NCBI GenBank assembly: GCA_003252295.1
Contig: QKEV01000003.1
Span: forward strand, 701 to 64,700
From: a bacterium
GTDB lineage: Bacteria; Patescibacteriota; Minisyncoccia; Phycocordibacterales; UBA12088
Length of the DNA: 64,000 bases
Direction of reading: 5' to 3'
A program made the translations under genes and the position numbers. The notes under the pieces are model-generated. The model searched no databases, was not told the origin of the DNA, and saw only the letters and a program-made list of their open reading frames with translations. Each line of letters opens with the position of its first letter. The stretch's first letter is position 1. Shown piece after piece: positions 1-58,706 of the stretch.

Positions 1-3000
1 ACAAATGACACCCTCGAATTCATCAAGTGTAATGATGACTCCTGTTCGGATACTATCCAGCGTACGCTTGATGATGGTGGTGGAACAGACGTTGTTGGTG
101 GATACACCTCCATTGCCATCGGCACTGATGGCTTCCCGGTTGTGAGCTATCACGATAACACAAACGGCACTTTTGAATTCATCAAGTGTAACGACGTTTC
201 CTGTTCCGATGTTACCCAACGTACATTACATAGTACCGGAGGTGGGGGAGATGTTGGTGAGCACACCTCCATCACCACAGGTGTCGATGGTTTCCCGGTC
301 ATGATTTACCTTGATGTTAAAAATTATGAACTCGAGTTCATAAAGTGTAACGATGCTTCTTGTTCTGATGCTATACAACGTACGCTTGATGTTCCATATA
401 ATGTTAATTTGTACTATACCTCTATTGCCATCGGCACTGATGGCTTCCCAGTCATGAGTTACAGTAGCAATACAAGCCACTCCCTTGAATTTTTCAAATG
501 CAACTCCCTCGACTGTGCTCCAACAGGTTCATCGACCGCTCAACTCATAAACGACAACTCTGACCTCGACTACTACCTTGATAATGATGAGTACTCTGCC
601 ATAGCTTCGGATGATAGTACCTACGATGTACTCCGTGCAGGTACGAGTACCATGGGAGCAGTTGTGGCAAACAGCATCAACACGAACAGTACTGATCAGA
701 TACGGGTGACCTGGGATGGGCAGATAAGCGTTGCAACCACAACGAGCATACAGCTGTACAACTACAACAGTGACGGATGGGAAACACTCGATTCAAGTAC
801 GAGTCCTGCACCAGACACCGACTTTACCCTACAAGCAGTGCAGAGTACTTCTGTTGCTGACTACTACGATGTCTCTGATACGGTGACCGCACGTGTGATC
901 ATTGGTACCACCACGGACTACACCGAACTTAGTACCGACCAGCTCCTCATTGAAATGTCAGATGCATTCGTACGTGCCACCACTACCCAACGTGCCTACA
1001 TGTTCTACAACGACAACAACGGTGGTGTAGGGAGCAGTACTGTTCGGAGTGGAGCAAGTACGAGTACCGCCATCACAGGCGTCAAGAAAGGAGAACGTAT
1101 GGTGGTACGTCTCCAACTCGATACTGATGGGAATGATACCACTGCAGGTACGAGCACCCACACGTACCGCCTCCAATGGGAGAACTACACCGACGCACTG
1201 GGAACATGGAACGATCTCTCGACCACTACCGACATAGCATGGTCACTCTCGTATGACGGTGCACGATGGGGAAGAGGAGGACCGATACCACTTGCAACGA
1301 GTACCGGCTCCATAGACACCTGTAGCGGTAGTGCAACGTACGAAGGAGGACAGTTTGTGGCAGGCTTTGCTACAACAACCGCAGTAGCATTCCTCCCTGA
1401 TCAATGTAAAGACCTCGCCTACGCCATACACACCGGCAACGCTAAGCTCGGCAAGCAGTACCGACTCCGTGTCATTAACGGTGACGACTCAGAAGACCTT
1501 GCAACTGCAGGAGGAGCGTACAGTACCTACCCAACCTTCACGATCGAGAGTGCGACGAGTACACGGTACAGTAAGATGAGTAAGGGTGGGGAAGTGGCTA
1601 CTGTTCTTGATGATGGTGGGGAGGTGAATGATGTTGGTAAGCACGCCTCCATTGCCATTGGCACTGATGGTTTTCCGGTTATAACCTACCATGACAATAC
1701 TGACTATGATCTGGAATTTATCAAATGTAACGACCTTTCCTGCTCCGATACCACACAGCGCACGCTTGATGATGGTGGGGGTGTGAATGATGTTGGTGTG
1801 GCCACCTCTATTACTATTGGCACTGATGGTTTTCCGGTTATAACCTACCATGACAATACTGACCATGATCTGGAATTCATCAAGTGTAATGACGTTTCCT
1901 GCTCCGACACGACTCAGCGTACGCTTGATAGTGATAATTTATCTGGCCTGTACAACTCCATTGTCATCGGTACTGATGGATTCCCAGTGGTAAGCTATTT
2001 TGATGGACTCCTCAGCTTCATCAAATGTAACGACCTTTCCTGCTCCGATACCACCCAGCGTATCATTGATAATGGTGGTATGGTGAATACTGTTGGTGTG
2101 ACCACCTCTATTACTATCGGCACTGATGGTTTTCCGGTTATAACCTATTATGACGATACTGACTATGATCTGGAATTTATCAAGTGTAACGACGTTTTCT
2201 GCTCCGACACGACTCAGCGTACGCTTGATGATGGTGGTGGACAAATGGTTGGTTCCGCAACCTCCATTGCTATCGGCACTGATGGTTTTCCGGTTATAAC
2301 CTACCATAACAATACTGACTATGATCTGGAATTTATCAAGTGTAACGACGTTTCCTGCTCCGACACGACTCAGCGTACGCTTGATGATGGTGGTTACGCC
2401 ACCTCCATCACCATCGGCACTGACGGTTTTCTTGTGGTCAGTTACTATAATGATGCAACTGACCATGGTCTTGAATTCATCAAGTGTAATGACGTTTCCT
2501 GCTCCGACACGACTCAGCGTACGCTTGATAGTGATAATTTATCTGGCCTGTACAACTCCATTGTCATCGGTACTGATGGATTCCCAGTTATAAGTTACTA
2601 TAATGACACTGACAATAATCTTAATTTACTCAAATGCAACTCCCTCGACTGTGCCCCAACCGGTTCCTCGACCGCTCAACTCATAAACGACAACTCTGAC
2701 CTCGACTACTACCTCGACAACGACGAGTACAGTGCAGTAGGGAGTGACGATAGCACCTACGATGTAGTACGAGCAGGCACGAGTACCCTCGGAGCATTCG
2801 TCTTCAAGAAAAAGCACACGAACAGTACGGATAACATAGAAGCTACCTGGGACGGGCAGGTGAGTGACTCAGCTACCACCTCACTACAGATATACAACTA
2901 CACTTCAGAGAGTTGGGAGACACTTGAGTCAAGCTCTACGCCGGTAACCGATACCGACTTTACCCTAAACGGCACACAGTCCACTTCACTTGCTGACTAC

Positions 3001-3636
3001 TATGACCCGAGCAATGTCGCTACGCTACGCGTGCTCGTTGGTACCACCACCAACTACACCGAGCTCAGCAGTGACCTCGTGAGTGTCGTCTTTACCTCAG
3101 GATCATCCTTCACCTTTGCAACTGACATTTCCGGTTTCGGTGATATCAATGAAGGGGAGTACCGTGTTGCAACAGCAACGATCTCCATTAGTACTGAAAA
3201 CGAAGCAGGTTACAACGTGTCACTCATTTCTAATGATCGTACCATTACTGATACGTCTATGGACCTCACCACTGATGCTTCTGTAGGTATCATTGACCGT
3301 TTCGAGTGGTTGTCAGGAGCAGCAACAACCAGTGCGGGGAATGCCGTAAACATCGTACCTGGTAATGAGTTCTTGGCATTCCGTGTTATGACCGCAAGTG
3401 GCTCAGTGCCGTTTCTTGCACCAGACTGGTGGGGTACCGACGACACACTCTTCTCCATAAACAACCTCTGGGCAGGTATCGCGAGCTCAAGTGCTGGAAA
3501 CATTCAGATAGGGAACAGTAGTGTCGCTGCACCTTCCACAGAGTATGGCACCGTACAGTTCTACCTCGATGTACCATCGACACAGAAGACAGGATCGTAT
3601 ACTGGTGACATTACCTTTACGGTTATTGCGAATTAG
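1..3636 (+). CDS. giant tandem-repeat cell-surface protein (5' end lies upstream of window)
   Basis: Frame 1 is open from nt 1 and nt 1-141 already encode a repeat unit. At least ten 46-54 aa repeats share the consensus DGG..DVG..TSI.IGTDGFPVI.Y.DNTD.DLEFIKCND.SCSDTTQRTLD. Two copies of a ~160-aa module (nt 481-960 and 2617-3090) are present. The C-terminal ~170 aa is shared with the next ORF. Antisense ORFs in the track are repeat shadows. Confidence 0.75.
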   Translation, partial: TNDTLEFIKCNDDSCSDTIQRTLDDGGGTDVVGGYTSIAIGTDGFPVVSYHDNTNGTFEFIKCNDVSCSDVTQRTLHSTGGGGDVGEHTSITTGVDGFPVMIYLDVKNYELEFIKCNDASCSDAIQRTLDVPYNVNLYYTSIAIGTDGFPVMSYSSNTSHSLEFFKCNSLDCAPTGSSTAQLINDNSDLDYYLDNDEYSAIASDDSTYDVLRAGTSTMGAVVANSINTNSTDQIRVTWDGQISVATTTSIQLYNYNSDGWETLDSSTSPAPDTDFTLQAVQSTSVADYYDVSDTVTARVIIGTTTDYTELSTDQLLIEMSDAFVRATTTQRAYMFYNDNNGGVGSSTVRSGASTSTAITGVKKGERMVVRLQLDTDGNDTTAGTSTHTYRLQWENYTDALGTWNDLSTTTDIAWSLSYDGARWGRGGPIPLATSTGSIDTCSGSATYEGGQFVAGFATTTAVAFLPDQCKDLAYAIHTGNAKLGKQYRLRVINGDDSEDLATAGGAYSTYPTFTIESATSTRYSKMSKGGEVATVLDDGGEVNDVGKHASIAIGTDGFPVITYHDNTDYDLEFIKCNDLSCSDTTQRTLDDGGGVNDVGVATSITIGTDGFPVITYHDNTDHDLEFIKCNDVSCSDTTQRTLDSDNLSGLYNSIVIGTDGFPVVSYFDGLLSFIKCNDLSCSDTTQRIIDNGGMVNTVGVTTSITIGTDGFPVITYYDDTDYDLEFIKCNDVFCSDTTQRTLDDGGGQMVGSATSIAIGTDGFPVITYHNNTDYDLEFIKCNDVSCSDTTQRTLDDGGYATSITIGTDGFLVVSYYNDATDHGLEFIKCNDVSCSDTTQRTLDSDNLSGLYNSIVIGTDGFPVISYYNDTDNNLNLLKCNSLDCAPTGSSTAQLINDNSDLDYYLDNDEYSAVGSDDSTYDVVRAGTSTLGAFVFKKKHTNSTDNIEATWDGQVSDSATTSLQIYNYTSESWETLESSSTPVTDTDFTLNGTQSTSLADYYDPSNVATLRVLVGTTTNYTELSSDLVSVVFTSGSSFTFATDISGFGDINEGEYRVATATISISTENEAGYNVSLISNDRTITDTSMDLTTDASVGIIDRFEWLSGAATTSAGNAVNIVPGNEFLAFRVMTASGSVPFLAPDWWGTDDTLFSINNLWAGIASSSAGNIQIGNSSVAAPSTEYGTVQFYLDVPSTQKTGSYTGDITFTVIAN

Positions 3637-3788
3637 TGAGTAATCACATTTACTAAGCAATACAAAGGTAGTTTAGTAAATATTTATCAACAGGTGTGAT
3701 AAAAAAGTGTTCAGGTGCGTGGTATATTTAACCCAATACAAGGAGTATGCACTATCCCTTGCCATATTTAGTTTTTTAAAAAATAATC

Positions 3789-4484
3789 ATGCAGACACAA
3801 ATAATAAAATTCTCCAAGTTGCTTGAAAATGAAGTACAACTTGCAGGAGTATCTTTTTTGATTGCTTCTCTTATATTTGTCATGTCTTTTAGTTTTATTG
3901 CTTTTGGACAAGACTCATCAGGAGAAACACTTACCGTAACTGTACTAGAAGCTATGACCTTCACAACAGATGTGAGTGGTTTTGGTGATCTTACTCCAGG
4001 TACACCAAAATATGCAACCACGACAACTAATGTAGTTACAAATTCTGGTTCTGGTTTCAATCTTACATTATCAGGTGATGATCAGGGTACTACTGATACG
4101 GTAATGGATCTTACCACTGATGATACTGTTGGTATCACTGACCAGGAAGAGTGGGTTGCTGGAGCAGCAACAACTACAGCAGGAAATGCAGTGCTTGTTG
4201 GAGCACTTGATAACTCAGGAGATGTGCTTGCGTTTCGTATGATGACCGCATCCGGTACGGCAGAGGTCATTTCTACTAGCTGGTGGGGTGCTGATGATAC
4301 AGCTGGTAATGCACTCTGGGCAGGTATTGCTAGCTCAACGGTTGAAAGACAAATAGGAAACAGCTCTGTGTACTCATCTTCTGCAGCGGTAAACACTGTT
4401 CAGTACTACCTCGATGTACCAGCTTCACAGCAAACTGGTTCATACGATGGTGGTGTTACGTACACGGCAACAGCAAATATATAG
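3789..4484 (+). CDS. small secreted protein sharing the C-terminal domain of the giant repeat protein
   Basis: N-terminal hydrophobic signal/anchor (VSFLIASLIFVMSFSFIAFG). Residues ~55-231 align with the last ~175 aa of ORF 1..3636, sharing DVSGFGD, MDLTTD, AGAATT.AGNAV, LAFRMMTASG, WWG.DD, LWAGIASS, QIGNSSV and QYYLDVP..Q.TGSY. Confidence 0.7.
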   Translation: MQTQIIKFSKLLENEVQLAGVSFLIASLIFVMSFSFIAFGQDSSGETLTVTVLEAMTFTTDVSGFGDLTPGTPKYATTTTNVVTNSGSGFNLTLSGDDQGTTDTVMDLTTDDTVGITDQEEWVAGAATTTAGNAVLVGALDNSGDVLAFRMMTASGTAEVISTSWWGADDTAGNALWAGIASSTVERQIGNSSVYSSSAAVNTVQYYLDVPASQQTGSYDGGVTYTATANI

Positions 4485-4592
4485 AAATTCTGAACTGTTT
4501 TTGCCACAGTAGTGCTATTTTGACTATATCGACGCTGCTGTGTTGTCGTGCTACGATTTAAGCAATAACGGGTTAGTTGTACTGAGTGGCTA

Positions 4593-5555
4593 TTGAAAAA
4601 AATGGATCAATCACGCATAACATTATTGAAAGCATTGAAACAAAAACTGCAAACCCTGTTTGCAGTTTTTGCGTGCCTCATGCTCGCTGGTTCATTTGCA
4701 ACACCAGTGCATGCTGCAGTTGGTGTAAAAATACAGCCAATCAAGGTTTCGACAACAATAGATAAGGGGGCAGAATCTGTTGGATACATCACACTTACTA
4801 ACGAGAGTGATCAGCCGGAGGGTATCATAGTTGAAACTGCGGTTGAGGACTTTGTTCCACTTGAGGGTGGTTCAAATATTAACTTTGTCTCTAGAACTGA
4901 GGGACTTACCACAGCTGCTGATTGGATAACCCTTGATGTTCCTGAAACATTTGAACTTGCTCCCGGAGAACAGAAAAAGGTAAAGTACACCATACGTGCT
5001 CCGGAAGATGCAGAGCCAGGAAGTCACTTTAGTGTCGTGTTCTTTAAGGCATTAAAGAAGGATGATGAAGGGCAATTGAAGGTGGGAACACGAGTTGGTT
5101 CACTATTCTTTATTACGGTACCAGGAAACTATGAGCAGAAGGGTGAGATAGAAAGCTTTACTGCACCAGAATTTATACAGCGAGGTCCAGTTCCATTCAC
5201 CATACATTTCAAAAATACCGGTACCGTGCACTTTGAACCAAAAGGTACCATTGTGATAAAGAATATGTTTGGTAAGCAGGTTGCTGAGGTCCCTGTTGAG
5301 GGGCAGGTAGTGCTTCCTACCGGAGCCCGAGATCTTAATGCACAATGGAGTCCTTCAGGACTCATTGCAGGGAAGTATACAGCATCACTCTCTATAACTG
5401 ATGGTGCTGGTGAGGTGCTTACCGCACAGGATGTCACCTTTATTGCCTTTCCTATTTGGTATGCGGTTATCTTCTTCCTGATCTTTATCTTTATCTACTT
5501 GTTGCTTCGCTTCTTCCGAAAGCATGTGAACATTTCTATCTCGGTTGGTAAGTAA
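4593..5555 (+). CDS. secreted beta-rich protein with C-terminal TM anchor (DUF916/CscA-like architecture, tentative)
   Basis: Signal peptide ending AVHA, a ~260-aa ectodomain and a C-terminal TM (FPIWYAVIFFLIFIFIYLLL) with a basic tail. The architecture resembles WxL-interacting DUF916 proteins. The family assignment is by pattern only. Confidence 0.55.
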   Translation: MKKMDQSRITLLKALKQKLQTLFAVFACLMLAGSFATPVHAAVGVKIQPIKVSTTIDKGAESVGYITLTNESDQPEGIIVETAVEDFVPLEGGSNINFVSRTEGLTTAADWITLDVPETFELAPGEQKKVKYTIRAPEDAEPGSHFSVVFFKALKKDDEGQLKVGTRVGSLFFITVPGNYEQKGEIESFTAPEFIQRGPVPFTIHFKNTGTVHFEPKGTIVIKNMFGKQVAEVPVEGQVVLPTGARDLNAQWSPSGLIAGKYTASLSITDGAGEVLTAQDVTFIAFPIWYAVIFFLIFIFIYLLLRFFRKHVNISISVGK

Positions 5556-5568
5556 TCAGTAAAACACT

Positions 5569-6696
5569 GTGTCTGATAACACACGAACAGTTTCAAAATG
5601 GAAGTTTTTTCCAGCATTTTTGTTGGTCATGTGCTGTTGGTTCTACACTGTGCATGCTCAGACGTTGCAGGAAAGTTCTGATGAGATGCTCATCGTAACC
5701 ATACTGGGAGACACGGCATGTAGTGATGGGGTAGATAATGATGGTGACACTTTCATTGATTTTCCGAATGACCCAGGGTGTGGTTCATATACTGATGACG
5801 ATGAGAATGATGCTCCGATACCACAGTGTAGTGATGGGATAGATAATGATTCTGATGGTCTTATTGATTACCCAAATGATACTGGGTGTGATGATGCAAA
5901 TGATGATAATGAGTATGTGTACTCACCCCCACCTTCAGGGGGAAGTGGTGGAAGCGGGGGGAGTTCCCCAGACAAGACTGCAGTGCGGTTTAGAGGATTA
6001 ACATTTCCTGAAGCGGAGCTCTCTCTTTTGAAGAGTGGTCAGGTGATTGAGACTGATACAGCAAACTCGCTTGGTGAGTTTGATTTGCGCTTAAGTGACC
6101 TTGCTGAAGGGCAGTACAACTTTGTGATTTTTGGTATAGATTCTGAGGAATTGCGCTCTGAAACGAGCGCATTCAATGTTTCTATTGAGGAAGATGTAAC
6201 CACGTCTGTGACTGGTATTTACATGCCACCAACCATACGCCTTGATAAAATACAGGTTAAAAATGGAAACATACTTACCGTTGATGGATACGCTATGCCA
6301 TATGCTGAAGTCTATCTATATGTTGATGGGGATATAGACACGGTTGGTGTTGCAACATCGAGTGCTGCTGGAAAATGGCTGTATGAGTTAAATACTGGCA
6401 GTATTGGATATGGTGACCATACAATACGTGCACAAGCTGTGAAAGGTTCGTTTGAAAGCATGCTTTCAAATTCACTCTCATTCAAGATTGGTCTGAGTGA
6501 TATATTCCAAACGGTAACAGATTCATGTGGATCAGTTGCTGACGTAAACTATGACTGCCGAGTAAACTTGATAGATTTTTCTATTGTGGCTTTTTGGTAC
6601 AAGAAGGATGGTGCGCCATCAAATGTTGATATCAATAATGACGGGGTGGTGGATATAAAGGACTTTAGTATTATGGCGTATCATTGGACGGGGTAA
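5569..6696 (+). CDS. secreted protein with Cys-framed Asp-rich Ca-binding-like repeats and C-terminal dockerin type I domain
   Basis: Signal peptide present. Two copies of CSDG.DND.D..ID.PNDPGC. A Gly/Ser linker and an Ig-like middle region follow. The C-terminus carries a duplicated dockerin motif: DVNYDCRVNLIDFSIV and DINNDGVVDIKDFSIM, matching D.N.DG.V...D...I. Confidence 0.7.
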   Translation: MSDNTRTVSKWKFFPAFLLVMCCWFYTVHAQTLQESSDEMLIVTILGDTACSDGVDNDGDTFIDFPNDPGCGSYTDDDENDAPIPQCSDGIDNDSDGLIDYPNDTGCDDANDDNEYVYSPPPSGGSGGSGGSSPDKTAVRFRGLTFPEAELSLLKSGQVIETDTANSLGEFDLRLSDLAEGQYNFVIFGIDSEELRSETSAFNVSIEEDVTTSVTGIYMPPTIRLDKIQVKNGNILTVDGYAMPYAEVYLYVDGDIDTVGVATSSAAGKWLYELNTGSIGYGDHTIRAQAVKGSFESMLSNSLSFKIGLSDIFQTVTDSCGSVADVNYDCRVNLIDFSIVAFWYKKDGAPSNVDINNDGVVDIKDFSIMAYHWTG

Positions 6697-6706
6697 TAGG
6701 ATTTGT

Positions 6707-7621
6707 ATGTATAGAGTTCTATTTTTACAACTAGCTATCATCCATACATTACTGTTTTGTATATGCACGACTCCGCTCTATGCAGCTACGTACTACTTTG
6801 ATCCAGTGCATAATGAGGTAGGTGAAGGACAGGTCAATGAGGTTGCTGTACTCGTGAATACAAATGGTGAATATATTAATGCGTTTGAGGGTGCGGTAGT
6901 GATTCCTGATACTGTTTCAGTGGTAGATGTGAAGACAAATGACTCTGTTGTTGACCTTTGGCTCAGTGCCCCGGCGTTAACTGACGGTCGTATTACATTT
7001 TCCGGTATCGTACCGGGTGGTTTTGATGGTATTCGTTCAGCGTATGGTGATGAACGCAAATCTGGCATTTTGTTGCGTATTGTATACAAGGGTGAACATG
7101 TTGGATCTGAATCATTTATGTTTGAAGACATGAAAGCATACCTGCATGATGGTAAAGCAACTGAAGCTGAAGTTGACCTTGTCCCTGCTGTAGTTGATGT
7201 GGTGAGAGGGGGAATAAAAAGAGAAGAAACAGAAAAAAAAGATACCGTAAAACCTGAAGTATTTGAGCCATATATTGTCCAAGACAATGCACTTGCCGAT
7301 AGTGCTTACGTTGTTGTATTCCACACAAGCGATAGAGGTAGTGGTGTTGCTTACTATGAGGTGTCCGAGACTTCAACAGGAGAGAAAAAGTGGGTACGTG
7401 CAAATTCACCATTTGTACTCAAGTATCAAACTTGCTCAAATGATGTGTACGTGAAGGCCGTTGACTATGCAGGCAATGAACGTGTTGTACAAGCGGTTTG
7501 TGGGGAGGATGGTAGAATCGTTCAAGCATTTTCAGTACTGCCAAAATGGTTCTGGTATGTAGCAGCTCTACTATTTGTTTTGCTACTATTTGTGTATATT
7601 CGTCGTTCTCGTACTGGCTAG
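6707..7621 (+). CDS. membrane-anchored cohesin-like domain protein
   Basis: Signal peptide. The N-terminal domain (VNEVAVLVNTNGEYINAFEGAVVIPDTVSVVDV...ITFSGIV) resembles a cohesin fold and is paralogous to the N-terminal domain of the next ORF. A Y_Y_Y/Ig-like module (VYVKAVDYAGNE) and a C-terminal TM (WFWYVAALLFVLLLFVYI) follow. Confidence 0.55.
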   Translation: MYRVLFLQLAIIHTLLFCICTTPLYAATYYFDPVHNEVGEGQVNEVAVLVNTNGEYINAFEGAVVIPDTVSVVDVKTNDSVVDLWLSAPALTDGRITFSGIVPGGFDGIRSAYGDERKSGILLRIVYKGEHVGSESFMFEDMKAYLHDGKATEAEVDLVPAVVDVVRGGIKREETEKKDTVKPEVFEPYIVQDNALADSAYVVVFHTSDRGSGVAYYEVSETSTGEKKWVRANSPFVLKYQTCSNDVYVKAVDYAGNERVVQAVCGEDGRIVQAFSVLPKWFWYVAALLFVLLLFVYIRRSRTG

Positions 7622-7642
7622 TTAGGGTACACTGTAAGTACT

Positions 7643-9388
7643 ATGAGGTTATCTCGTGTTCTTTGGGCGTTTCTCTTTGTGTTACTGTTTGGGTTTGGAA
7701 CTGTTGCAGATGCTGCAACAATGTTTCCTTCACCCACTTCTGGAGAAAAAACAGTGGGGGCAGTGTTTTCTTTAAAGGTGTACGTTGAAAGCTCGTCACA
7801 AGCGATGAATGCAGCTGGTGCAACGCTGTCTTTTCCTACTGACATTCTTGAGGTTGTGTCGGTGAGTAGAGAAGATTCTATTATAAATCTATGGATACAA
7901 GAACCGACATTTAGTAATACATATGGAACGGTAAAGTTTGAAGGAATCGTTTTTGATCCTGGATTTAAGGGTGCTAGTGGGCAGGTAATCACGGTTCATT
8001 TTCGAGCGAAGAAAATCGGGGTGGCTCCTATTACACTCGATTCCGGGACAGTGCTTGCTAATGATGGTATGGCAACAGAAATCCTCACTGGTACGAAGAA
8101 AGCATCATACTCAATCGTTGCTCCAAGTGCTGTTGAGGTGGCACCATCGCCAGTGGTAGTGGATCCGGTGACAACACAGGTGAACCTCCCAGCACCGGTT
8201 ATTGTCTCAGATACACATCCTGACCAAGATGCTTGGTACAGTAACGGTAACCCTCATTTTTCATGGAAGAACGATAAAGGGGTTACAGCAGTTCGTACAC
8301 TTATAGACAGGGATTCTAACTCTGTTCCAACAGTGGTGTACGATCCTCCTGTAGAGGAGAAGCAAGTGCAAGATCTTGAAGATGGTGTTTGGTACTTCCA
8401 TGTACAAAGTAAGGATGAGAATGGTTGGGGTGGAATTGCACACTATGCGGTACATATAGATACAGAAAAACCACATGATCTCACTATAACCGAAATTGAA
8501 AAGATCGACACAACTACACCAACTGCTGGGTTTACTTTGAATGCTCAAGATGAGGTTTCTGGTATAGATTACTACGAGATTGAAGTAGGTGGTGAGACAG
8601 TTACTTGGAAGCCGGGAAGAGAAGCATTCATAACTTCCGTACTTGAACCGGGAGAATACACGCTTAATGTAAAAGTATTTGATCAAGCAGGAAATGTTAC
8701 TGGTGGTTGGGCAAAGTTCACTATTGAAGGAATTCCAACACCTACAGTTGATGGTACAGTGACAGAGATTACCGCAGGGGAATCCTTTGAGATACGCGGG
8801 AAAGTCACCCAAGGTACTCAGGTAGTGTATGCATACATTACTGATAGATTTGGTGAAGTGTACGAGTTCTCTACTTCTGATATAGCTCAAGATGGATCTT
8901 TTGTGCTCATGGTACAGGGTACACTTTCGCCAGGTGAGTACGTTGTGACACTGGTGGCTGAAGATGGGCAAGGTGCAAGAAGTAGAGAGAGTGGTAAGTT
9001 ACCTTTAACAGTACTCATCCCAGGTTTGTTTGGTCTGACAGTAATGGAGGTGTTGTATATAATTTGCGCTCTCATACTTCTCGTGTTGGTACTCTTTACC
9101 CTACTTATTTTCCGTCATAGGAAAACAGAGCATCTCATCAAGCATCTTGGAAAGGGTGTAGACGAGATGGATAAAAGTGTCGTAAAGGCAGCGGCTCTCC
9201 TCAAGAGTGATATTTCAAAACAGGTTGATGACATAAAAAACAAACGGTCAAGCGGTAAACTGACAAAAACAGAACGAGATCTTGTTGTTACCATGCAGCA
9301 GGACATGGCTGATCTTGAAAGGTATCTTAAGAAACAGATTACTGAAGTAGAAGAATTGCTTGGCAAAGAAGAGGAAAAAGAGGGCTAG
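7643..9388 (+). CDS. membrane-anchored cohesin-like domain protein with Ig-like modules and cytoplasmic coiled-coil tail
   Basis: Signal peptide. A cohesin-like N-terminal domain (VGAVFSLKVYVESS...ATLSFPTDILEVVSVS...VKFEGIV). Ig/Y_Y_Y-like modules (GVWYFHVQSKDENGW). TM LFGLTVMEVLYIICALILLVLVLFTLLIF, then a ~90-aa charged coiled-coil tail. Confidence 0.55.
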   Translation: MRLSRVLWAFLFVLLFGFGTVADAATMFPSPTSGEKTVGAVFSLKVYVESSSQAMNAAGATLSFPTDILEVVSVSREDSIINLWIQEPTFSNTYGTVKFEGIVFDPGFKGASGQVITVHFRAKKIGVAPITLDSGTVLANDGMATEILTGTKKASYSIVAPSAVEVAPSPVVVDPVTTQVNLPAPVIVSDTHPDQDAWYSNGNPHFSWKNDKGVTAVRTLIDRDSNSVPTVVYDPPVEEKQVQDLEDGVWYFHVQSKDENGWGGIAHYAVHIDTEKPHDLTITEIEKIDTTTPTAGFTLNAQDEVSGIDYYEIEVGGETVTWKPGREAFITSVLEPGEYTLNVKVFDQAGNVTGGWAKFTIEGIPTPTVDGTVTEITAGESFEIRGKVTQGTQVVYAYITDRFGEVYEFSTSDIAQDGSFVLMVQGTLSPGEYVVTLVAEDGQGARSRESGKLPLTVLIPGLFGLTVMEVLYIICALILLVLVLFTLLIFRHRKTEHLIKHLGKGVDEMDKSVVKAAALLKSDISKQVDDIKNKRSSGKLTKTERDLVVTMQQDMADLERYLKKQITEVEELLGKEEEKEG

Positions 9389-9480
9389 AAACTTAGGTAT
9401 CTATCCTTAATTACCCTTTACTGTAGTTTCTTGTAATAGAGATACTGCTGTAGGGGGTAGTTTTTGCTATACTTTCAGCA

Positions 9481-10182
9481 ATGAGAGAAGAACATGTTAT
9501 ATCGTACACATCCATACTCAAGGCATTTATTGTTTTTGTTGTTGGAGTTTCAGTTCTAGTTGCAGTTCAACTTTTTTCTGAGGAGAGTGAGGAAGATACC
9601 GGTACAGGTACACAAACTCAACAGGAGGAAACTGTTGCAAAAGAGACCGGGACACAAAAAACTAAAACACAAGGGAATGTAGATTGGAAAACATACGTTA
9701 GTGACGGCAAGATATTTCAAATACAGTATCCTGGAGAGTACTACTATGTGCGAGAGAAAACGAATGGAGCAGAAATGGTAAATATTTTTGAAGAAGATGA
9801 GTACAACAGGGCATATCGTGAGGCGCAGCAGACGTGTGTGGAGCGAGGTGAATCAGATTGTTCGGTGTACTACTCTCGTACAAGTTCAATGCTGATCGTC
9901 ATAAAGGATGATGGTAGAACAATCAAAGAGTATGCAAACATTTATGGTGCAACAAACAAAACCTGTACTGTAGGAGGGAAAAAAGGTTTATGCACCGTTG
10001 CATCTGGTTATACTGACCCAATACCGTATTTTTTGTATGAAGAGAATGGGAAAGTAGTGATATTTTCTAATGTAGGGACAGCCCAGAAACCAAGCGTTCC
10101 TCTGCCAACAGTTGATCCTCGAAGTAGTTTACTTAAAGACGAACGGGAACAAATAGTAGGTACGTTCCGTTTTTTGAAGTAA
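9481..10182 (+). CDS. hypothetical N-terminally anchored extracytoplasmic protein
   Basis: N-terminal TM (ILKAFIVFVVGVSVLVAVQLF), an acidic/Thr linker and a 6-Cys globular region. Last gene of the surface cluster, followed by a terminator. Confidence 0.45.
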   Translation: MREEHVISYTSILKAFIVFVVGVSVLVAVQLFSEESEEDTGTGTQTQQEETVAKETGTQKTKTQGNVDWKTYVSDGKIFQIQYPGEYYYVREKTNGAEMVNIFEEDEYNRAYREAQQTCVERGESDCSVYYSRTSSMLIVIKDDGRTIKEYANIYGATNKTCTVGGKKGLCTVASGYTDPIPYFLYEENGKVVIFSNVGTAQKPSVPLPTVDPRSSLLKDEREQIVGTFRFLK

Positions 10183-10206
10183 TTTATCACCTTACAAAAA
10201 GTTAAA

Positions 10207-10240
10207 ACAAAAAAGCTGGAGAAATCTCCAGCTTTTTTAA
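10207..10240 (+). terminator. bidirectional intrinsic terminator
   Basis: aaaaaaGCTGGAGAaatcTCTCCAGCtttttt: a perfect 10-bp stem flanked by an A-run and a T-run. Confidence 0.7.
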
Positions 10241-10341
10241 AATGAGCGCTCCAAGAGTGTATATGGCTAGCTTAATGTCAGAGCCATCCGTTTTTTTTCT
10301 GGGTTTTGCTATAGAAGCAATGTTTATTTCGTCTTTTCTGT

Positions 10342-10383
10342 TTGGGCTGTTTGATGGGCTGTTTGATGGGCTGTTTAGGTGGG
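10342..10383. repeat. 12-bp tandem repeat (gggctgtttgat x3.3)
   Basis: Direct tandem copies are visible in the sequence. The overlapping 60-aa ORF (MGCLMGCLMGCL) is an artefact of the repeat. Confidence 0.8.
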
Positions 10384-11037
10384 ATACCCAAAGATAACAT
10401 AGCAGTCAGTAGTGACCTTAATCATAAGACTCTTGGAGGCGCGATTCGTTCTGATAGCAGGGTAGCAAAATTACTTTGTATGTCAAATGGGATTATTAAC
10501 ACGTATACAAAAAAGAACCGGTAGTACAACTTGTACTACCGGCAAATACTGCCCAGTGTTTTGAAGCAGATAGATGAGGGGGCGCTCTATACTATCTGTT
10601 GAGAGGACACTAAACAGTAGTTTAGAATTGCCTCCAGTGAGGGTGAATGTTGATCTGATGTTTCAGAGCCCGTTTCATATGCAGAAGTGAGCGCTCGTTG
10701 CATGTACTGTACTGGACTACAGAGCATAGATGACTTCAACAATTCCCCCCGCTGGGGCAATGTCGTTTTCTGTGCGCAAGAATATATGATAATGTTTATT
10801 TGTCAATAGTATAGAAATAAAAAAATGATACCATAGCAGATGGAGTAGTTTTCCCACTAGTTGGTGAGGTTACGGCTCACCAAGGTGTCGTAGACGTCAA
10901 AAGGGCAGTCATAGTGATGTGACTGCCTTGTCTGTTGCATAGGCATATTGACCAAAAAGGTGAATCACCATATAGTCGAGAGAGGCACTATTACAAAGTA
11001 ATAGTACATTACTAAAAGAACTGGAAAGGGGTGCGAC

Positions 11038-11259
11038 ATGGTGCATTGTGGTGTTACATCGCGTACTGATGATTGGGAGAAGCAAGTGGTCTTTTTTGAG
11101 GAAGTTGGTGATAAAGAACTTAATGAGTTGTGTGCCGTTTTGAAAAAATGTAGAGAAGGCGAAGGTAATATACAAATAGTGAGAGAGCAGGCATATTATC
11201 TCATGGGAAAACATCCAACCAACATCCGCATTCTGCATTTTTGCAAACATCTTAATTAA
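11038..11259 (+). CDS. hypothetical small protein (orphan)
   Basis: 73-aa ORF in an AT-rich island with no recognisable motif. It overlaps an antisense ORF, and which strand is coding is uncertain. Confidence 0.25.
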   Translation: MVHCGVTSRTDDWEKQVVFFEEVGDKELNELCAVLKKCREGEGNIQIVREQAYYLMGKHPTNIRILHFCKHLN

Positions 11260-11293
11260 AACCGTTTGTTGAAATATTCATGCCGGAGTACAT

Positions 11294-19489: not shown

Positions 19490-19614
19490 ATAACACCTCC
19501 AAGGTACAGGTTCTCTTTACTGTTGTTTATACAATAGTAACAAAATGTATGCAATGTGAAAGAAAATGGGCGGGTACAACGTATAATAAAGCAGTCAGAA
19601 TTAATAATTTTTTT

Positions 19615-21357
19615 ATGGATATATTTAAGAATACTTGGGTACAGCGTATTGGCGCCTTTTTTATTGCTTTGACCTTTGTAGGTGCAATATACATTTTCTT
19701 CTTTGGAGGTGAAGATGAGACGGTTGCATCTGCAAAAGTGGTACAGACTGTTGACAAGGGAACTGTTTCGACGAGTATAGAAACCACTGGGGAAATAGAA
19801 GCTGCAGAAGTGCTCGATCTCGACGTGTACAAGCTTGCCGAACGTATAGATGCGGTTGGTATAAGTAATGGTGTACATGTAGAAGAAGGTGACCTTCTTT
19901 TTGCGTTTGATCAGAGTGATGTAGACATAGAGATATCAGCATCACAAATAGATGTTGATGAAGCAGAGCTTGCACTTGAAATACAGCAACAGGAGTCCGG
20001 TGACATAAATACCAGTATCACAAGTTTAAAAAATGAGATAGCGTTACTGGAAACAGATCTCGCAGGGTATCCAGATGACAAAAATGACACACTGCGTGAT
20101 TTTTTGAATGAAAATATTGAAGCAGTCTCAAGTGATGATAGGTATGATGTACAAGTAGACAAGACTGCACCAACGATAGGTGGCTATTACAACAGTACAA
20201 TAGAGGGTGAGTATCACATAAAGATATTTGCCTCAAGTGAGGAATCTGGTTACTCATATACTTTGAGTGGTCTTGAAAGTGGTACATACCCAGTCTACCT
20301 CAACACAAAAGTAAATCTTGGGACACGTGGTCTGACTATTACATTCACCTCAACTGACATACGAGCTCGTGATGAGTGGGTAGTGTCTTTACCTAATACA
20401 GGAGCTTCAGAGTATCCAGAGAACCTTAAGGATTACCAAGATGCTATTGAACGAATTGATGAGAGTATTGAGAGTGATACAGTCTCACTTGCAAACAAGA
20501 AGACACAACTTTCTCAGGCTGAGCGTGGTGACACTTCGTTTCAGCGTCAACTTGATGTTGAGAGTGCAAAGCTTGCCGTAAGCCGTGCATATGTGGATCT
20601 TCAGGATAAGGTGGCTGAGCAAGATGAACGGTACATAGTTGCACCATTCTCCGGAACAGTTGTGGGAATGGAGAATGTTGTTGTGGGTGCAACACCCACC
20701 AAGGATAGTGATGATCCGGTAACCTTTGGTTCACTCATTTCTGATGAGTTCCATGCAACATTCTCACTTGGTGCTAGTGATATAGATAAGGTGAGTGTAG
20801 GGCAGAAGGTTGAAGTTACACTCACGTCAGTTTCTGGAAGTGAGCCACTTACTGCAGAGATAGTGGAGGTGAGTTCATTGCCTGACTCAAGTACGGTTGC
20901 ACAGTATGAGGTGAAGGCACTCATTACAGAGGTGCCAGAAGGTATTAACCTTCGTGATGGTCTGCTTGCCGATATTGCCATTATTCAAGAAGAAAAGGAG
21001 GATGTATTGCGAGTACCTTCTTCAGCGGTAACGTATAGCGGCACACAGGCACAGGTTACAGTGCTTGAAGATCTATCAGATACTGAGCTCAAGCAGATAG
21101 AGCGAATGGGTATCCTTCGTGTTACTGATACTTCCACCTTTACCTCGTATGCGAAAGATGTTGAGATTGGTCTCATCGGACAGTACTATGTCGAGATACT
21201 CTCAGGTCTTGAAGAAGGTGATATTATTTCAGTGAGCAGTGTCTCTGTTTCTACAGAAGAGGATACATCAGTAGTCGATGATGCACGTATGGGACCGGGA
21301 GGTGGTGGTGGTAGTCCTCCTGCGGGAGCAGCGGCGATGGGTGCTATGAGAGGATAG
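19615..21357 (+). CDS. efflux membrane-fusion (periplasmic adaptor) protein, HlyD/MacA-like
   Basis: N-terminal TM (IGAFFIALTFVGAIYIFFF), a biotinyl/lipoyl-like hairpin (VHVEEGDLLFAFDQSD), a long coiled coil and a beta-barrel region (VAPFSGTVVGMEN). The operon continues into an ABC ATPase and an FtsX-like permease. Start chosen at Met 19615 (MDIFKNTW). Confidence 0.7.
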   Translation: MDIFKNTWVQRIGAFFIALTFVGAIYIFFFGGEDETVASAKVVQTVDKGTVSTSIETTGEIEAAEVLDLDVYKLAERIDAVGISNGVHVEEGDLLFAFDQSDVDIEISASQIDVDEAELALEIQQQESGDINTSITSLKNEIALLETDLAGYPDDKNDTLRDFLNENIEAVSSDDRYDVQVDKTAPTIGGYYNSTIEGEYHIKIFASSEESGYSYTLSGLESGTYPVYLNTKVNLGTRGLTITFTSTDIRARDEWVVSLPNTGASEYPENLKDYQDAIERIDESIESDTVSLANKKTQLSQAERGDTSFQRQLDVESAKLAVSRAYVDLQDKVAEQDERYIVAPFSGTVVGMENVVVGATPTKDSDDPVTFGSLISDEFHATFSLGASDIDKVSVGQKVEVTLTSVSGSEPLTAEIVEVSSLPDSSTVAQYEVKALITEVPEGINLRDGLLADIAIIQEEKEDVLRVPSSAVTYSGTQAQVTVLEDLSDTELKQIERMGILRVTDTSTFTSYAKDVEIGLIGQYYVEILSGLEEGDIISVSSVSVSTEEDTSVVDDARMGPGGGGGSPPAGAAAMGAMRG

Positions 21358-21358
21358 T

Positions 21359-22054
21359 ATGAACACCGAGACAAACAACATTGTTACCCTTGAACATGTA
21401 CATAAAGAGTTTGTACTCAGTAAAGCGGTTACGGTGAAGGTCCTCAATGATATTAACCTGACCATAAAAGAGGGAGAGCTTGTAGCGATTATTGGTCCGT
21501 CAGGTTCAGGTAAGTCTACCCTTATGAACCTCATTGGTTGTTTAGACACACCGTCAACGGGAACATACCTCTTCAATGGAAAAAATGTCGGTACAATGGA
21601 TGATGATGCACTTGCTGAACTTCGTTCTACTGAAATAAGTTTTATTTTTCAATCATTTCATTTGCTGCAGGGAAAGAGTGTGTACCAGAATGTCATGTTG
21701 CCACTTCAGTACCAACGTACCTTCAAGGGTGATTACAGGGAGAAGGTTGAAAAGGCGCTCAAGGAAGCAGATATGCCTGAAAACAGGTGGAACTATAAAC
21801 CAAACTTACTTTCAGGAGGTCAACGACAAAGAGTAGCAATAGCACGTGCACTTGTCGCGCAACCAAAACTACTTCTTGCTGATGAGCCAACCGGTAACCT
21901 TGATAGTAAAACAGGTGAGAATGTACTGGATGCATTGATCAAACTCAATAGGGAGCATGGTACAACAGTGGTTATCGTGACACATGATAACAGTATCACT
22001 GAAGTGGTTGATAGGACTATTCGAATAGTAGATGGGTTAATACAACAAGATTAG
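21359..22054 (+). CDS. ABC transporter ATP-binding protein (MacB/LolD/FtsE-like)
   Basis: Walker A GPSGSGKST, signature LSGGQRQRVAIARAL and Walker B LLLADEPTGNLD. Confidence 0.88.
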   Translation: MNTETNNIVTLEHVHKEFVLSKAVTVKVLNDINLTIKEGELVAIIGPSGSGKSTLMNLIGCLDTPSTGTYLFNGKNVGTMDDDALAELRSTEISFIFQSFHLLQGKSVYQNVMLPLQYQRTFKGDYREKVEKALKEADMPENRWNYKPNLLSGGQRQRVAIARALVAQPKLLLADEPTGNLDSKTGENVLDALIKLNREHGTTVVIVTHDNSITEVVDRTIRIVDGLIQQD

Positions 22055-22160
22055 TACCTGTCCCGTTAGAAATTATTGATTACTCGCAAGAACAAGTAAT
22101 AGAGATTAAAAACGGGGTTTATACAATAAAAATAATTATTAGAGGATAATTTCTAATGGG

Positions 22161-23342
22161 ATGAAACTGAGACATATAGTACAGGAAGGTGGGCAAGCAC
22201 TACATGCAAACAAGCTCCGTAGTGCGCTCACAATCATAGGTATCGTTGTTGGTATCTTTGCGGTAACTGCCATGTTAGCACTTGGTGAAGGTCTTTCGCA
22301 GAACATTGAAGACAGGATCAGCTCTATGTCCTCAGGAGATATTTCTGTGCAAGGTGATCTTACTATGACTGATTTTGAATGGATACGAAGTCAGTTGTAC
22401 ACAGAGGATGTGGTTGCTACATTGAGTTCGAGTAATCCTACAGTCATTATTTCTGGAACAGAGTACAGTGTCTCTGTTTCAAGTCCATTTGGTGATTATT
22501 TAGACGCTAATGATCTTGATATTACGAAGGGTGAAGTGTATGACTTCAATGATCCGGAGTATGAAGAGAAAGTGGTTATTGTGAGCTCTAGTCTTGAGGA
22601 TGCTGTTGTTGAAGATGGGGGACAGAGTATTTTAAATCAGAAGATTTCTATTGGTGGGTTGCAGTACACAGTGATCGGTATCTTCGAGGAGAGTAGTTCT
22701 GGTTTCATGAGGAATGATGGCACGGCTTACATACCGTACAAGGCAGCGGTGGGTAATGTTTCCAATACGAGCAACTTTAGTAGTATGGCAGTATACCTCG
22801 TTGATTCTTCGTACTATGAGATAGCAGGAAAGCATATACTTGAGGGGTTGAATGCCTCACGACACCTCTCCCTTGATAGTGAGGACCTTTTCAGTGTTTC
22901 AACTGCACAATCTATGATTGAGTCGGTACAGGAAACTTCAGCTATGATTAGTCTCTTCCTTGGTGTGGTAGGAGGTATTGCACTCTTTGTAGGAGGTATC
23001 GGCACCATGAACATGATGCTCACATCGGTTACTGAACGTACAAAAGAAATTGGGCTCAGGAAAGCGATTGGTGCACGAAACAGAGATATTCTCCTGCAGA
23101 TACTCGCAGAGTCAGTGTTCCTTACTATGATAGGAGGCATCATTGGTATTCTCATTACTTATATTGTTTCAATAGTGGCAAACAAAATGCTTGGAGATTC
23201 AAGCACGCTCTCACTTGTAGTATCTAGTGGTGTGGTTATCTTTGCTACATCAGTAGCCATTGCTGTGGGTGTCATCTTTGGACTCTACCCAGCGCGTAAT
23301 GCGAGTAAGCTCCAGCCTGTGGATGCATTAAGAACAGAGTAA
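22161..23342 (+). CDS. ABC transporter permease, FtsX/MacB-like
   Basis: N-terminal TM, a large periplasmic domain and a C-terminal 3-TM FtsX-like domain (GLRKAIGARNRDILLQILAESVFLTMIGGIIG). Confidence 0.8.
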   Translation: MKLRHIVQEGGQALHANKLRSALTIIGIVVGIFAVTAMLALGEGLSQNIEDRISSMSSGDISVQGDLTMTDFEWIRSQLYTEDVVATLSSSNPTVIISGTEYSVSVSSPFGDYLDANDLDITKGEVYDFNDPEYEEKVVIVSSSLEDAVVEDGGQSILNQKISIGGLQYTVIGIFEESSSGFMRNDGTAYIPYKAAVGNVSNTSNFSSMAVYLVDSSYYEIAGKHILEGLNASRHLSLDSEDLFSVSTAQSMIESVQETSAMISLFLGVVGGIALFVGGIGTMNMMLTSVTERTKEIGLRKAIGARNRDILLQILAESVFLTMIGGIIGILITYIVSIVANKMLGDSSTLSLVVSSGVVIFATSVAIAVGVIFGLYPARNASKLQPVDALRTE

Positions 23343-38011: not shown

Positions 38012-38064
38012 AAGAAACACTAATACCTGCAATGCTATCCGCATTACAGGCGTAGTGTATCTAG

Positions 38065-38137
38065 TGCGCGCACCAGGACTCGAACCTGGGACCACAGAGG
38101 TATAAGCTCTGCGCTCTACCAACTGAGCTATACGCGC
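38065..38137 (-). tRNA. tRNA with anticodon TAT (reads AUA; tRNA-Ile(UAU)-type)
   Basis: Manual fold of the reverse complement gives a 73-nt cloverleaf. Acceptor GCGCGTA/TGCGCGC, D-arm GCTC-AGTTGGTA-GAGC, anticodon arm CAGAG-CTTATAC-CTCTG, T-arm CCAGG-TTCGAGT-CCTGG, discriminator A. No encoded CCA. Confidence 0.75.
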
Positions 38138-42486: not shown

Positions 42487-42487
42487 T

Positions 42488-58184: not shown

Positions 58185-58706
58185 ATGAAGAGGACATTGA
58201 AAGCAAAAGAAGAGGGAATGGTGCTGCTTGAGGCGATTGTTGCTGTTGGTGTGCTCACCACTATGTTTGCGGCGACCATGGCACTTTTCACCGCTTCGGT
58301 CACTGGGGTGAACTTAACCAACGATCAACTCATTGCAACGTACCTGGCACAGGATGCCATGGAACAGATCATTGCAAAAAACCAGTACAATTTTGATAAT
58401 GGTGAAGACTGGTTGTTCGATATGAATAACTGCTCGCTTGCTGGAGGTTGTGCACTTGATTACTTTTCAGCAGATGTGGACACATCACCGGAGAAGTGTG
58501 TTGATGCCAATAACTGCAAACTTTACTTTGAAAGTGGTGTATACACTACCACCGGGATAAATGAATCTCCATACACCCGCGTTACAACAATCTCACTTGA
58601 TGCCTTGAACCATCAAGCGGTTGTGGAGGTAGAAGTGTCATGGCTAAGTGGTGAAGATACTTTAACGTATACGCTTCGAAATATTTTATATGAGTACTTA
58701 CAGTAG
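58185..58706 (+). CDS. type IV minor pilin-like protein
   Basis: Start at MKRTLKAKEEGMVLLEAIVAVGVLTTMF, a prepilin-like N-terminus with Glu at +5. The ORF track starts upstream, in overlap. Confidence 0.7.
   Translation: MKRTLKAKEEGMVLLEAIVAVGVLTTMFAATMALFTASVTGVNLTNDQLIATYLAQDAMEQIIAKNQYNFDNGEDWLFDMNNCSLAGGCALDYFSADVDTSPEKCVDANNCKLYFESGVYTTTGINESPYTRVTTISLDALNHQAVVEVEVSWLSGEDTLTYTLRNILYEYLQ

Follow-up and report, generated by a model that had tools for sequence, protein, structure and literature searches.

A candidate surface-fibre or adhesin cassette with a cohesin–dockerin module, probably remotely related to Pam pili, in Paceibacteria-type Patescibacteria

A cluster of genes for putative surface proteins was analysed in a 64,000-nucleotide stretch of a Patescibacteriota genome (GenBank assembly GCA_003252295.1, contig QKEV01000003.1, positions 701 to 64,700 of the forward strand; referred to here as the window). 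The list of open reading frames (ORFs) and their translations give seven consecutive plus-strand ORFs, G1 to G7, in positions 1–10182, separated in order by spacers of 152, 108, 13, 10, 21 and 92 nucleotides (nt). The run closes with an intrinsic terminator hairpin at 10209–10240, 26 nt past the G7 stop codon (−18.6 kcal/mol, z −4.97); the hairpin is symmetric, and therefore bidirectional, serving both strands, and a terminator scan revealed none of comparable strength on the plus strand within the seven-gene run. A preliminary description of the locus had claimed seven consecutive same-strand genes, all secreted or anchored, that end in a single strong terminator. Gene order and terminator are as described, and export or anchoring holds for G2 to G7: a hydropathy scan finds a signal peptide alone in G2 and G4, a signal peptide with a C-terminal transmembrane (TM) helix in G3 and G5, a signal peptide, a TM helix at amino acids (aa) 471–489 and a tail of about 90 aa in G6, and an N-terminal TM anchor without a signal peptide in G7. 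The export signal of G1 could not be checked, as its N-terminus lies beyond the window edge. Relatives were collected by scanning GTDB with each species represented by one genome; this yielded 518 loci with a G3 relative, and the best 80 of these were surveyed using tblastn and local hidden Markov models of four families. The first six genes, G1 to G6, form a conserved gene cassette.

G1 (1–3636, plus strand) is the large subunit and a candidate tip adhesin; the left window edge truncates its gene, and the visible 1,211 aa are its C-terminal part only. In order, they comprise at least four repeats of about 50 aa (aa 1–167), a domain X (aa 168–320), a middle domain (aa 321–545), a second array of seven repeats of about 50 aa (aa ~546–890), a domain X′ that is 70% identical to X, and a C-terminal domain (C-domain; aa 1035–1211, nt 3103–3633). 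The repeats were mapped in the protein and also as tandem repeats in the DNA. The seven-repeat array matches CV39L weakly (E of 8e-6, far below the cut-off), a family of fucose-binding seven-bladed propeller lectins (PMC11186620; 10.1101/2024.11.25.624915). A lectin-like propeller identity for the G1 repeats is a lead, not a result. Across the surveyed loci the length of the large subunit varies between 341 and 1985 aa, and the N-terminal parts are unrelated between species; such size-variable, unrelated N-terminal parts are as expected for adhesin heads.

The small subunit G2 (3789–4484, plus strand; 231 aa) is composed of a signal peptide, a short strand (ETLTVTV, aa 46–52, nt 3924–3944) and a pilin-like C-domain. 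As first described, G2 and the C-domain of G1 are paralogues, with 52% identity across 179 aa (E of 4e-52). Both match the NCBIfam model NF058581 (CPR_Pam_pilin_C), which derives from a 2026 preprint on the Pam pilus (bioRxiv 10.64898/2026.03.03.709456): the G1 C-domain with an E of 1.3e-4 and 22.1 bits, and G2 with an E of 6.7e-3 and 16.5 bits over model positions 6–147 of 148. Within the G2 family, 47 of 49 members match the model (best E of 5.9e-7) and two match PamT, all under the curated cut-off, which is 55 bits for NF058581. These matches indicate remote homology with the Pam pilin C-domain, not membership under NCBI's rule. The shared C-domain ends 0–3 residues from the protein C-terminus in 78 of 80 proteins. 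It does not resemble a WxL domain by sequence, with no match to Pfam WxL and no pair of W-x-L motifs in any of the 49 G2 family members. Searches of PDB chains by sequence with G2, G3, the G1 repeats and the G2 and G3 family profiles gave nothing useful. An AlphaFold2 monomer model of G2 (pLDDT 76), compared with the PDB by Foldseek, scores weakly; donor-strand fibre subunits make up most of the highest-ranked matches, which include the TasA fibre, FimF/G/H, the PapG pilin domain, CfaE, AggA, CsuE and cannulae.

In the small subunits, a conserved strand (consensus AVTLTVTV, with an invariant Leu) directly follows the signal peptide; the domain model does not cover this segment, which has no defined structure in the G2 monomer prediction. 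G4 has an N-terminal strand of the same kind, MLIVTILG (aa 40–47, nt 5686–5709). Such an alternating hydrophobic strand begins the mature protein in 28 of 31 G4 homologues and in 29 of the 38 small subunits, compared with a frequency of 0.23 in random 24-aa windows. In several relatives of G4 the strand is literally TLTVTV. In the G4 relatives a Gly-rich linker comes next, and a C-domain is absent. The large subunits start matching the family profile just past the strand and therefore lack it; in the window G1, the segment ahead of the C-domain is the strand with which the repeated domain before it ends. Three types of part can be proposed on these patterns. G1, with a C-domain and no N-terminal donor strand, would be an acceptor only; G2 would be both donor and acceptor; and G4, with the strand and no C-domain, would be a donor only. 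These roles correspond to those of tip adhesin, shaft and terminator in chaperone–usher pili.

G3 (4593–5555, plus strand; 320 aa) has a signal peptide, two immunoglobulin (Ig)-like domains and a C-terminal TM helix, placed at aa 283–305 (nt 5439–5507) by hydropathy. Its predicted model (pLDDT 90) has two β-sandwich domains and the helix at residues 288–311. The top Foldseek match in the PDB is RbmA (6e-10), followed by the WxLIP entries 9i1y and 9i25 from Enterococcus faecium (7e-10); the WxLIP matches include an entry described as 'bound to long WxL'. The model also matches dozens of chaperones of chaperone–usher systems at 1e-8 to 1e-7 (CfaA, FimC, Caf1M, DraB, SafB and CsuC). The window protein itself has no Pfam match. 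Among 55 relatives of G3, 25 match PF06030 (WxLIP_PGBD, formerly DUF916) at an E of 1 or less (best 7.4e-5), and nine show weak matches to the putative S-layer family PACE-CTERM-PROT; DUF3324 is not among the 25 most often matched of the 39 families matched by these relatives. The earlier label of a DUF916-like anchor holds at the level of the family and of the model, which matches WxLIP, and not for the window sequence taken singly. On its model, G3 looks like a membrane-anchored two-domain protein of the WxLIP or PapD-chaperone type. It may be either a transient chaperone, as proposed for Pam, or a permanent anchor, as proposed for WxLIP.

G4 (5569–6696, plus strand; 375 aa) is a secreted protein with a GTG start. 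It starts with the signal peptide and the MLIVTILG strand; a pair of acidic double-disulfide repeats then leads through a Gly/Ser linker to two Ig-like domains, and a dockerin forms the C-terminus. The GTG at 5569 is preferred as the start because the resulting signal peptide is normal and fits the homologues; the public gene call for the identical protein (locus L001) begins 20 codons later, with the ATG at 5629, giving a protein of 355 aa from which most of the signal peptide is removed. The dockerin (aa 317–375, nt 6517–6693) has two repeats and scores 23.4 bits with PF00404 (Dockerin_1), for which the cut-off is 22.9, and the two-repeat motif is near-invariant in the alignment of 31 homologues. 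The acidic repeats, two copies of CSDG[VI]DNDxDxxIDxPxDxGC (aa 48–107, nt 5710–5890), match acid_disulf_rpt, lie between the N-terminal strand and the Gly-rich linker, and may bind calcium. Homologues have zero to two of these repeats, or other Cys-rich inserts.

The two proteins that follow are cohesin anchors. G5 (6707–7621, plus strand; 304 aa) has a signal peptide, a cohesin-like domain (aa ~27–165), an OmpL47-type or Ig-like domain (barrel_OmpL47, E of 3.4e-5) and a C-terminal TM helix (aa 280–298). G6 (7643–9388, plus strand; 581 aa) has a signal peptide, a cohesin (aa ~25–160), spacers of the Ig-like, PKD and OmpL47 types (Big_13 and PKD matches), the TM helix and the cytoplasmic tail. 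Pfam scans of the whole G5 and G6 proteins missed the cohesin, which was found with the N-terminal domain alone and with homologues: the G6 domain scores 27.6 bits with PF00963 against a cut-off of 24.1, Cohesin is matched by 20 of 36 N-terminal domains of the G5 and G6 types, and cohesin structures are the top five matches when a profile of these domains is compared with the PDB. The G5 cohesin domain is a divergent paralogue, with 27% identity to the G6-type domains. The dockerin protein and the two cohesin-like anchors of the preliminary description are thereby confirmed. The G6 tail (aa 490–581, 9110–9385 in the window) is a charged, probably helical, cytoplasmic segment of about 90 aa; tblastn matches reach aa ~570 in many close and some distant loci, and it is therefore conserved, which hints that it may couple the surface module to the cell interior. 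A promoter-like site at 9035–9063 falls within the 3′ part of G6.

A relative of G3 is encoded in 518 GTDB species representatives, and all named ones are Patescibacteria; a few automatic labels of metagenome-assembled genomes among these loci look wrong. The 80 surveyed loci divide into 47 close loci (Kaiser-, Taylor-, Adler-, Sung-, Portnoy- and Ryanbacteria and 'Paceibacterota') and 33 distant loci (CPR2, Beckwith-, Moran- and Uhrbacteria, and some labelled Saccharimonadales). Upstream of G3, at least one C-domain gene is present in 32 of 32 close loci and is rarely detected by profile in distant ones, and at least two such genes, one large and one for a protein of about 230 aa, are present in 29 of 32 close and 0 of 26 distant loci. 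G3 is directly followed by G4 in 27 of 30 close loci and in 26 of 30 distant ones, and at least two cohesin genes lie downstream in 27 of 30 and 12 of 23, respectively. Among loci with at least 5 kb on both flanks, the complete set from the G1 C-domain to G6 is found in order in 19 of 21 close and 0 of 15 distant loci. Dozens of independent genomes at species level show this gene order again, more than chance would give. Synteny in relatives had been set beforehand as the refutation test for the locus as a unit, and in close loci the genes from the G1 C-domain to G6 are neither unlinked nor absent. Conservation of the trio of G1 C-domain, G2 and G3 alone, suggested by the first synteny example (L002), was overturned by the 80-locus survey; L002 and L034 have the trio without G4 to G6.

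Several distant loci differ in composition. In loci L050–L076 (for example L050:10977–12209 and L054:11040–12275), G4 homologues have an extra N-terminal domain of about 130 aa between the signal peptide and the Ig domains, and no separate C-domain gene was detected in those loci; to judge from this arrangement, it might take the place of the pilin-like domain. Loci L055, L056, L065 and L067 have three or four tandem cohesin–TM paralogues after G4, not two, and also a second, divergent G3-like gene upstream. The last gene of the run, G7 (9481–10182, plus strand; 233 aa), encodes an N-terminally TM-anchored protein with four Cys residues. The preliminary description had included it in the surface unit; this part of the claim fails, as no G7 homologue was found by tblastn in the 80 related loci and G7 has no family match. 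On this distribution, G7 is taken as a lineage-specific neighbour, not a component of the cassette.

The closest system by sequence is the Pam pilus. Cryo-EM of filaments of Ca. Mycosynbacter amalyticus has shown that the pilins PamA and PamB, among the most abundant proteins, undergo donor-strand assembly, each comprising an N-terminal β-sandwich domain, a linker (donor) strand and a C-terminal domain (10.64898/2026.03.03.709456). In the same work, PamC and PamD are PapD/FimC-like chaperones by structure prediction, with an unusual C-terminal TM helix; PamT is a tip subunit, counted with PamA, PamB and PamE among the pilins; and PamR, which is RbmA-like and TM-anchored with an N-terminal strand, is proposed to terminate and tether the pilus. 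Pam relatives form host-contacting pili, and the Pam neighbourhood with ATP synthase genes is conserved (10.64898/2026.03.03.709456). The cassette and Pam are alike in being restricted to the candidate phyla radiation (CPR), in having a strictly C-terminal domain of the truncated Ig type and two-domain PapD-like proteins with a C-terminal TM helix, in the apparent Sec dependence of all parts with no envelope-spanning machine, and in a base protein with an N-terminal strand and Ig-like domains. G3 supplies the membrane-anchored PapD/FimC-like chaperone according to its model, Foldseek matches and hydropathy. As to the build of the pilins, G2 consists of strand and C-domain only, without an N-terminal domain, and G1 has a large N-terminal part and a profile match that begins past the strand position. 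Furthermore, the cassette has one chaperone-like gene where Pam has two, and no PamR with a C-terminal TM helix was found in it; its base protein, G4, ends in a dockerin instead, and two cohesin–TM proteins are added. The lineages are also different, of the Paceibacteria type for the cassette and Saccharimonadia and Microgenomatia for Pam. ATP synthase genes are not seen adjoining the cassette: the 20 window ORFs scanned include none, and the region upstream of the cassette falls beyond the window.

Three of the surveyed loci form a bridge between the two arrangements. L074 and L079, labelled Saccharimonadia, encode in order a giant protein with a C-domain-like end, a first G3-like protein, a pilin of 353–374 aa, a second G3-like protein and a protein that combines an N-terminal strand with Ig domains and has a TM helix at its C-terminus (L074:10930–12264, L079:10858–12270). 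Their pilins match Pam_pilin_C at 31–34 bits and the last protein matches PamR weakly (E of 1e-7), and their G3 relatives, which make up the other two TM-anchored two-domain proteins of these loci, correspond in this to PamC and PamD. In L080, the pilin matches Pam_pilin_C at 27 bits, and the protein at the PamR position is dockerin-ended and is followed by a cohesin–TM protein (L080:13102–15453). A built-in membrane anchor and a cohesin–dockerin joint thus appear interchangeable at the PamR gene position, which would amount to an evolutionary swap. A true PamR homology of G4 was considered and rejected: NF058578 is matched by neither G4 nor its 30 homologues (0 of 31), and the similarity of G4 to the PamR-like protein of L079 is confined to generic Ig repeats. 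G4 is retained only as a positional analogue.

The gene plan itself is that of the WxL clusters of Lactobacillales and Bacillales, which comprise a small WxL-only protein, a large protein with the same C-terminal domain behind host-binding domains, and WxLIP, with DUF916, DUF3324 and a TM helix; AlphaFold2 predictions show a WxLIP strand inserted into the WxL domain (PMC10599100). The adjacent G1, G2 and G3 follow the same three-gene plan, kept in 29 of 32 close loci, with variable N-terminal binding domains in the large subunit. In contrast, the shared domain of the cassette is not WxL, there is no evidence of peptidoglycan binding, the phylum is different, and cohesin–dockerin genes lie outside the cluster plan described in PMC10599100. 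The resemblance of the G3 family to WxLIP and of the G2 family to Pam pilins suggests that WxL clusters and the Pam pili of the CPR are related and share a common origin.

At the level of fold, the predicted structures of G2 and G3 and the conserved C-terminal strand at the protein end recall the chaperone–usher pili (Fim, Pap, Csu and CFA/I). However, the cassette has neither usher nor outer membrane, its chaperone is membrane-anchored, and the matches are at fold level only, with no detectable sequence homology. An usher-dependent pilus was rejected, as no usher family match was found in G1 to G7, and the cassette contains no further large gene. A sortase-dependent pilus of the Gram-positive type was likewise rejected: there is no LPxTG motif in G1 to G7 and no sortase family match in the cassette. 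TasA and the archaeal donor-strand fibres (TasA, TLP, bundling pili and cannulae) are counted among the closest known systems. Cellulosomal pairs and their non-cellulosomal relatives share with the cassette the cohesin and dockerin at Pfam level, the two-repeat calcium-loop dockerin and a cohesin on a cell-anchored protein; unlike the cellulosomal pairs, the cassette has no enzymes or multi-cohesin scaffoldin, its anchor is a TM helix rather than an SLH domain or a sortase product, and the pair would serve to tether a fibre. By formal criteria the cassette belongs to none of the Pam, WxL, chaperone–usher and cellulosome systems, yet has working parts in common with all four.

Taken together, G1 to G6 are read here as one conserved surface-fibre or adhesin cassette of Paceibacteria-type Patescibacteria, a remote relative of Pam laid out on the three-part WxL plan, with a cohesin–dockerin module that probably serves for anchoring; we give this reading about an even chance. 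All parts would be exported by Sec, and signal peptides are seen in G2 to G6. Held in the membrane by its C-terminal helix, G3 would bind the incomplete Ig-like C-domain of G1 and of G2 by donor-strand complementation, the mode in which PapD and FimC act in chaperone–usher pili and the one proposed for PamC and PamD in Pam pili. G1, as acceptor only, would sit at the tip, where its two arrays of lectin-like repeats would face the surface of the host. The N-terminal strand of G2 would then displace the G3 strand, in G1 at first and afterwards in further copies of G2, to give a stalk of one or many copies; G2 may form either a long filament or a one-subunit adaptor. At the base of the fibre, the N-terminal strand of the donor-only G4 would cap the last G2, and the G4 dockerin would plug into the cohesins of G5 and G6, the Ig-like spacers and TM helices of which would tie the fibre to the cell. 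In reproducing the three-part plan of the WxL clusters and Pam, G1, G2 and G3 point to chaperone-assisted donor-strand assembly, not mere display. The modular adhesion or display system proposed in the preliminary description is upheld as one conserved surface unit, and is revised in that G3 would be more than a passive anchor and the shared G1/G2 domain, in the light of the WxL and Pam plan, more than a case of paralogy. A role in host attachment is an inference drawn from the diversity of N-terminal parts among the large subunits and from the weak lectin-family match of the G1 repeats.

Several points weigh against this reading. Every Pam match is below the NCBIfam cut-off (16.5 and 22.1 bits against 55), and the WxLIP sequence matches are sub-threshold too. 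The single best Foldseek match of G3 is RbmA, not a chaperone; the fold scores of the G2 model are moderate, and Ig-like folds are promiscuous. The donor-strand case is built on a motif and on monomer models, so that insertion of the strand into the C-domain is putative. G2 is without the N-terminal domain that stabilises PamA and PamB filaments, and a long filament is accordingly not assured. No member of the G4 family matches the PamR model, and the likeness between G4 and PamR-like proteins lies in generic Ig repeats. The adjacency of G3 and G4 outlasts the detectable C-domain in distant lineages, where G3 may act primarily on G4. Finally, the fibre, its surface location and the co-expression of its parts are putative.

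The best placed of the alternatives, which we nevertheless consider unlikely, is a static platform of the WxL type, in which the C-domains of both G1 and G2 would be permanently bound and stabilised by G3, at membrane or wall, without polymerisation; the N-terminal domains of G1 would be displayed directly, and G4 to G6 would be an accessory display module. The gene plan is identical to that of the WxL clusters (PMC10599100), the WxLIP structures matched by G3 include the WxL-bound form, relatives of G3 match PF06030, and the N-terminal domain used by Pam pilins for filament contacts is lacking in G2. Against this, the G2 family has no WxL match or Trp-x-Leu pair and its similarity is to the C-domain of a polymerising pilin, and a platform would leave unexplained both the conserved free N-terminal strand on G2 and the same motif on G4.

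The cassette could instead encode a general envelope or S-layer-related housekeeping scaffold of Patescibacteria, not a device for host attachment. The very wide distribution of G3 relatives would suit such a function, as would the position of the cassette next to the ribosomal-protein/SecY operon and the weak PACE-CTERM-PROT matches. However, the large subunits vary greatly in their N-terminal parts, which are unrelated, and the G1 repeats are lectin-like, as is typical of adhesins; no S-layer family is matched at a significant score, and Pam relatives form host-contacting pili; the scaffold is therefore judged improbable. Equally improbable, in our view, are two independent neighbouring modules, one formed by the C-domain proteins and G3, the other a cohesin–dockerin trio with G4 as the displayed adhesin. 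The trio without G4 to G6 in L002 and L034, and the distant loci that have G3, G4 and cohesins without a detectable C-domain, are what separate modules would give; the fixed order, the spacers of 10–21 nt among G3 to G6, the complete set in 19 of 21 close loci, the N-terminal strand motif common to G2 and G4 and the adjacency of G3 and G4 speak for a single unit. A miniature cellulosome-like enzyme scaffold would account for the genuine cohesin and dockerin domains and is very improbable, as the preliminary description had also concluded: the one dockerin protein detectable in the 64 kb has Ig-like and acidic repeat domains and lacks a catalytic domain, a single cohesin is present in each of G5 and G6, further dockerins or cohesins were not found in the window, and neither the cassette nor the 20 other window ORFs scanned yielded a glycoside hydrolase or a carbohydrate-binding module.

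A broader proposal, which we hold tentatively and with less conviction than the single-cassette reading, is that the cohesin–dockerin pair acts as the anchoring joint of a donor-strand pilus. G4 would share the donor strand, its dockerin would replace a TM anchor, and the G6 tail could couple the joint to the interior; WxL, Pam and chaperone–usher-type assembly, until now described as separate systems, would then be one ancient family of chaperone-assisted surface fibres of monoderms. The Pam preprint makes no mention of WxL (10.64898/2026.03.03.709456), and we found no paper on this cassette, on cohesin or dockerin in connection with Patescibacteria surface systems or a CPR pilus, or on WxL in connection with donor strands. 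Host attachment in the ultra-small, host-dependent Patescibacteria, the largest bacterial radiation and the one least understood, is largely obscure outside a few cultured Saccharibacteria, and Pam, the first non-type-IV pilus, was described in 2026, mainly in Saccharimonadia and Microgenomatia. If the proposed reading is true, a fibre of the Pam kind would extend to the large Paceibacteria/Parcubacteria radiation (518 species-level genomes encode a G3 relative), with a candidate host-recognition head for each species and a testable assembly scheme of six proteins. It would also suggest fibre tethering as a non-cellulosomal function of cohesin–dockerin pairs.

Type IV pilus genes lie about 37 kb from the cassette, as previously described, with PilM at 47005, PilB at 50040, PilT at 52404 and PilC at 53491, spanning 47–55 kb. 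The earlier claim that the 64 kb holds no enzymes for wall or polysaccharide metabolism is correct for the 20 other ORFs scanned, among which there were none; ORFs at about 23–38 kb were outside that scan. Scans for tRNAs and Rfam families showed nothing within or adjoining the cassette.

Downstream, the locus borders on the ribosomal-protein/SecY operon. A stretch of about 1 kb (10240–11290), which separates the terminator from the ribosomal-protein genes, is without a convincing ORF and contains three tandem copies of the 12-nt unit GGGCTGTTTGAT at ~10335–10375 and a second strong hairpin at 10517–10543. A 160-aa ORF directly before the L3 gene (11294–11776) has no Pfam match; rpsJ (S10) would be expected at this position. 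Three further large ORFs have no Pfam match at an E of 1e-5: 19549–21357 (602 aa), which is immediately upstream of a MacB-type ABC transporter pair (21359–23342), 42395–43690 (431 aa) and 58690–60492 (600 aa). The sole tRNA in the 64 kb is a tRNA-Ile with the anticodon UAU (38064–38137, minus strand), a type uncommon in bacteria, in which AUA is mostly read by a lysidine-modified CAU tRNA.

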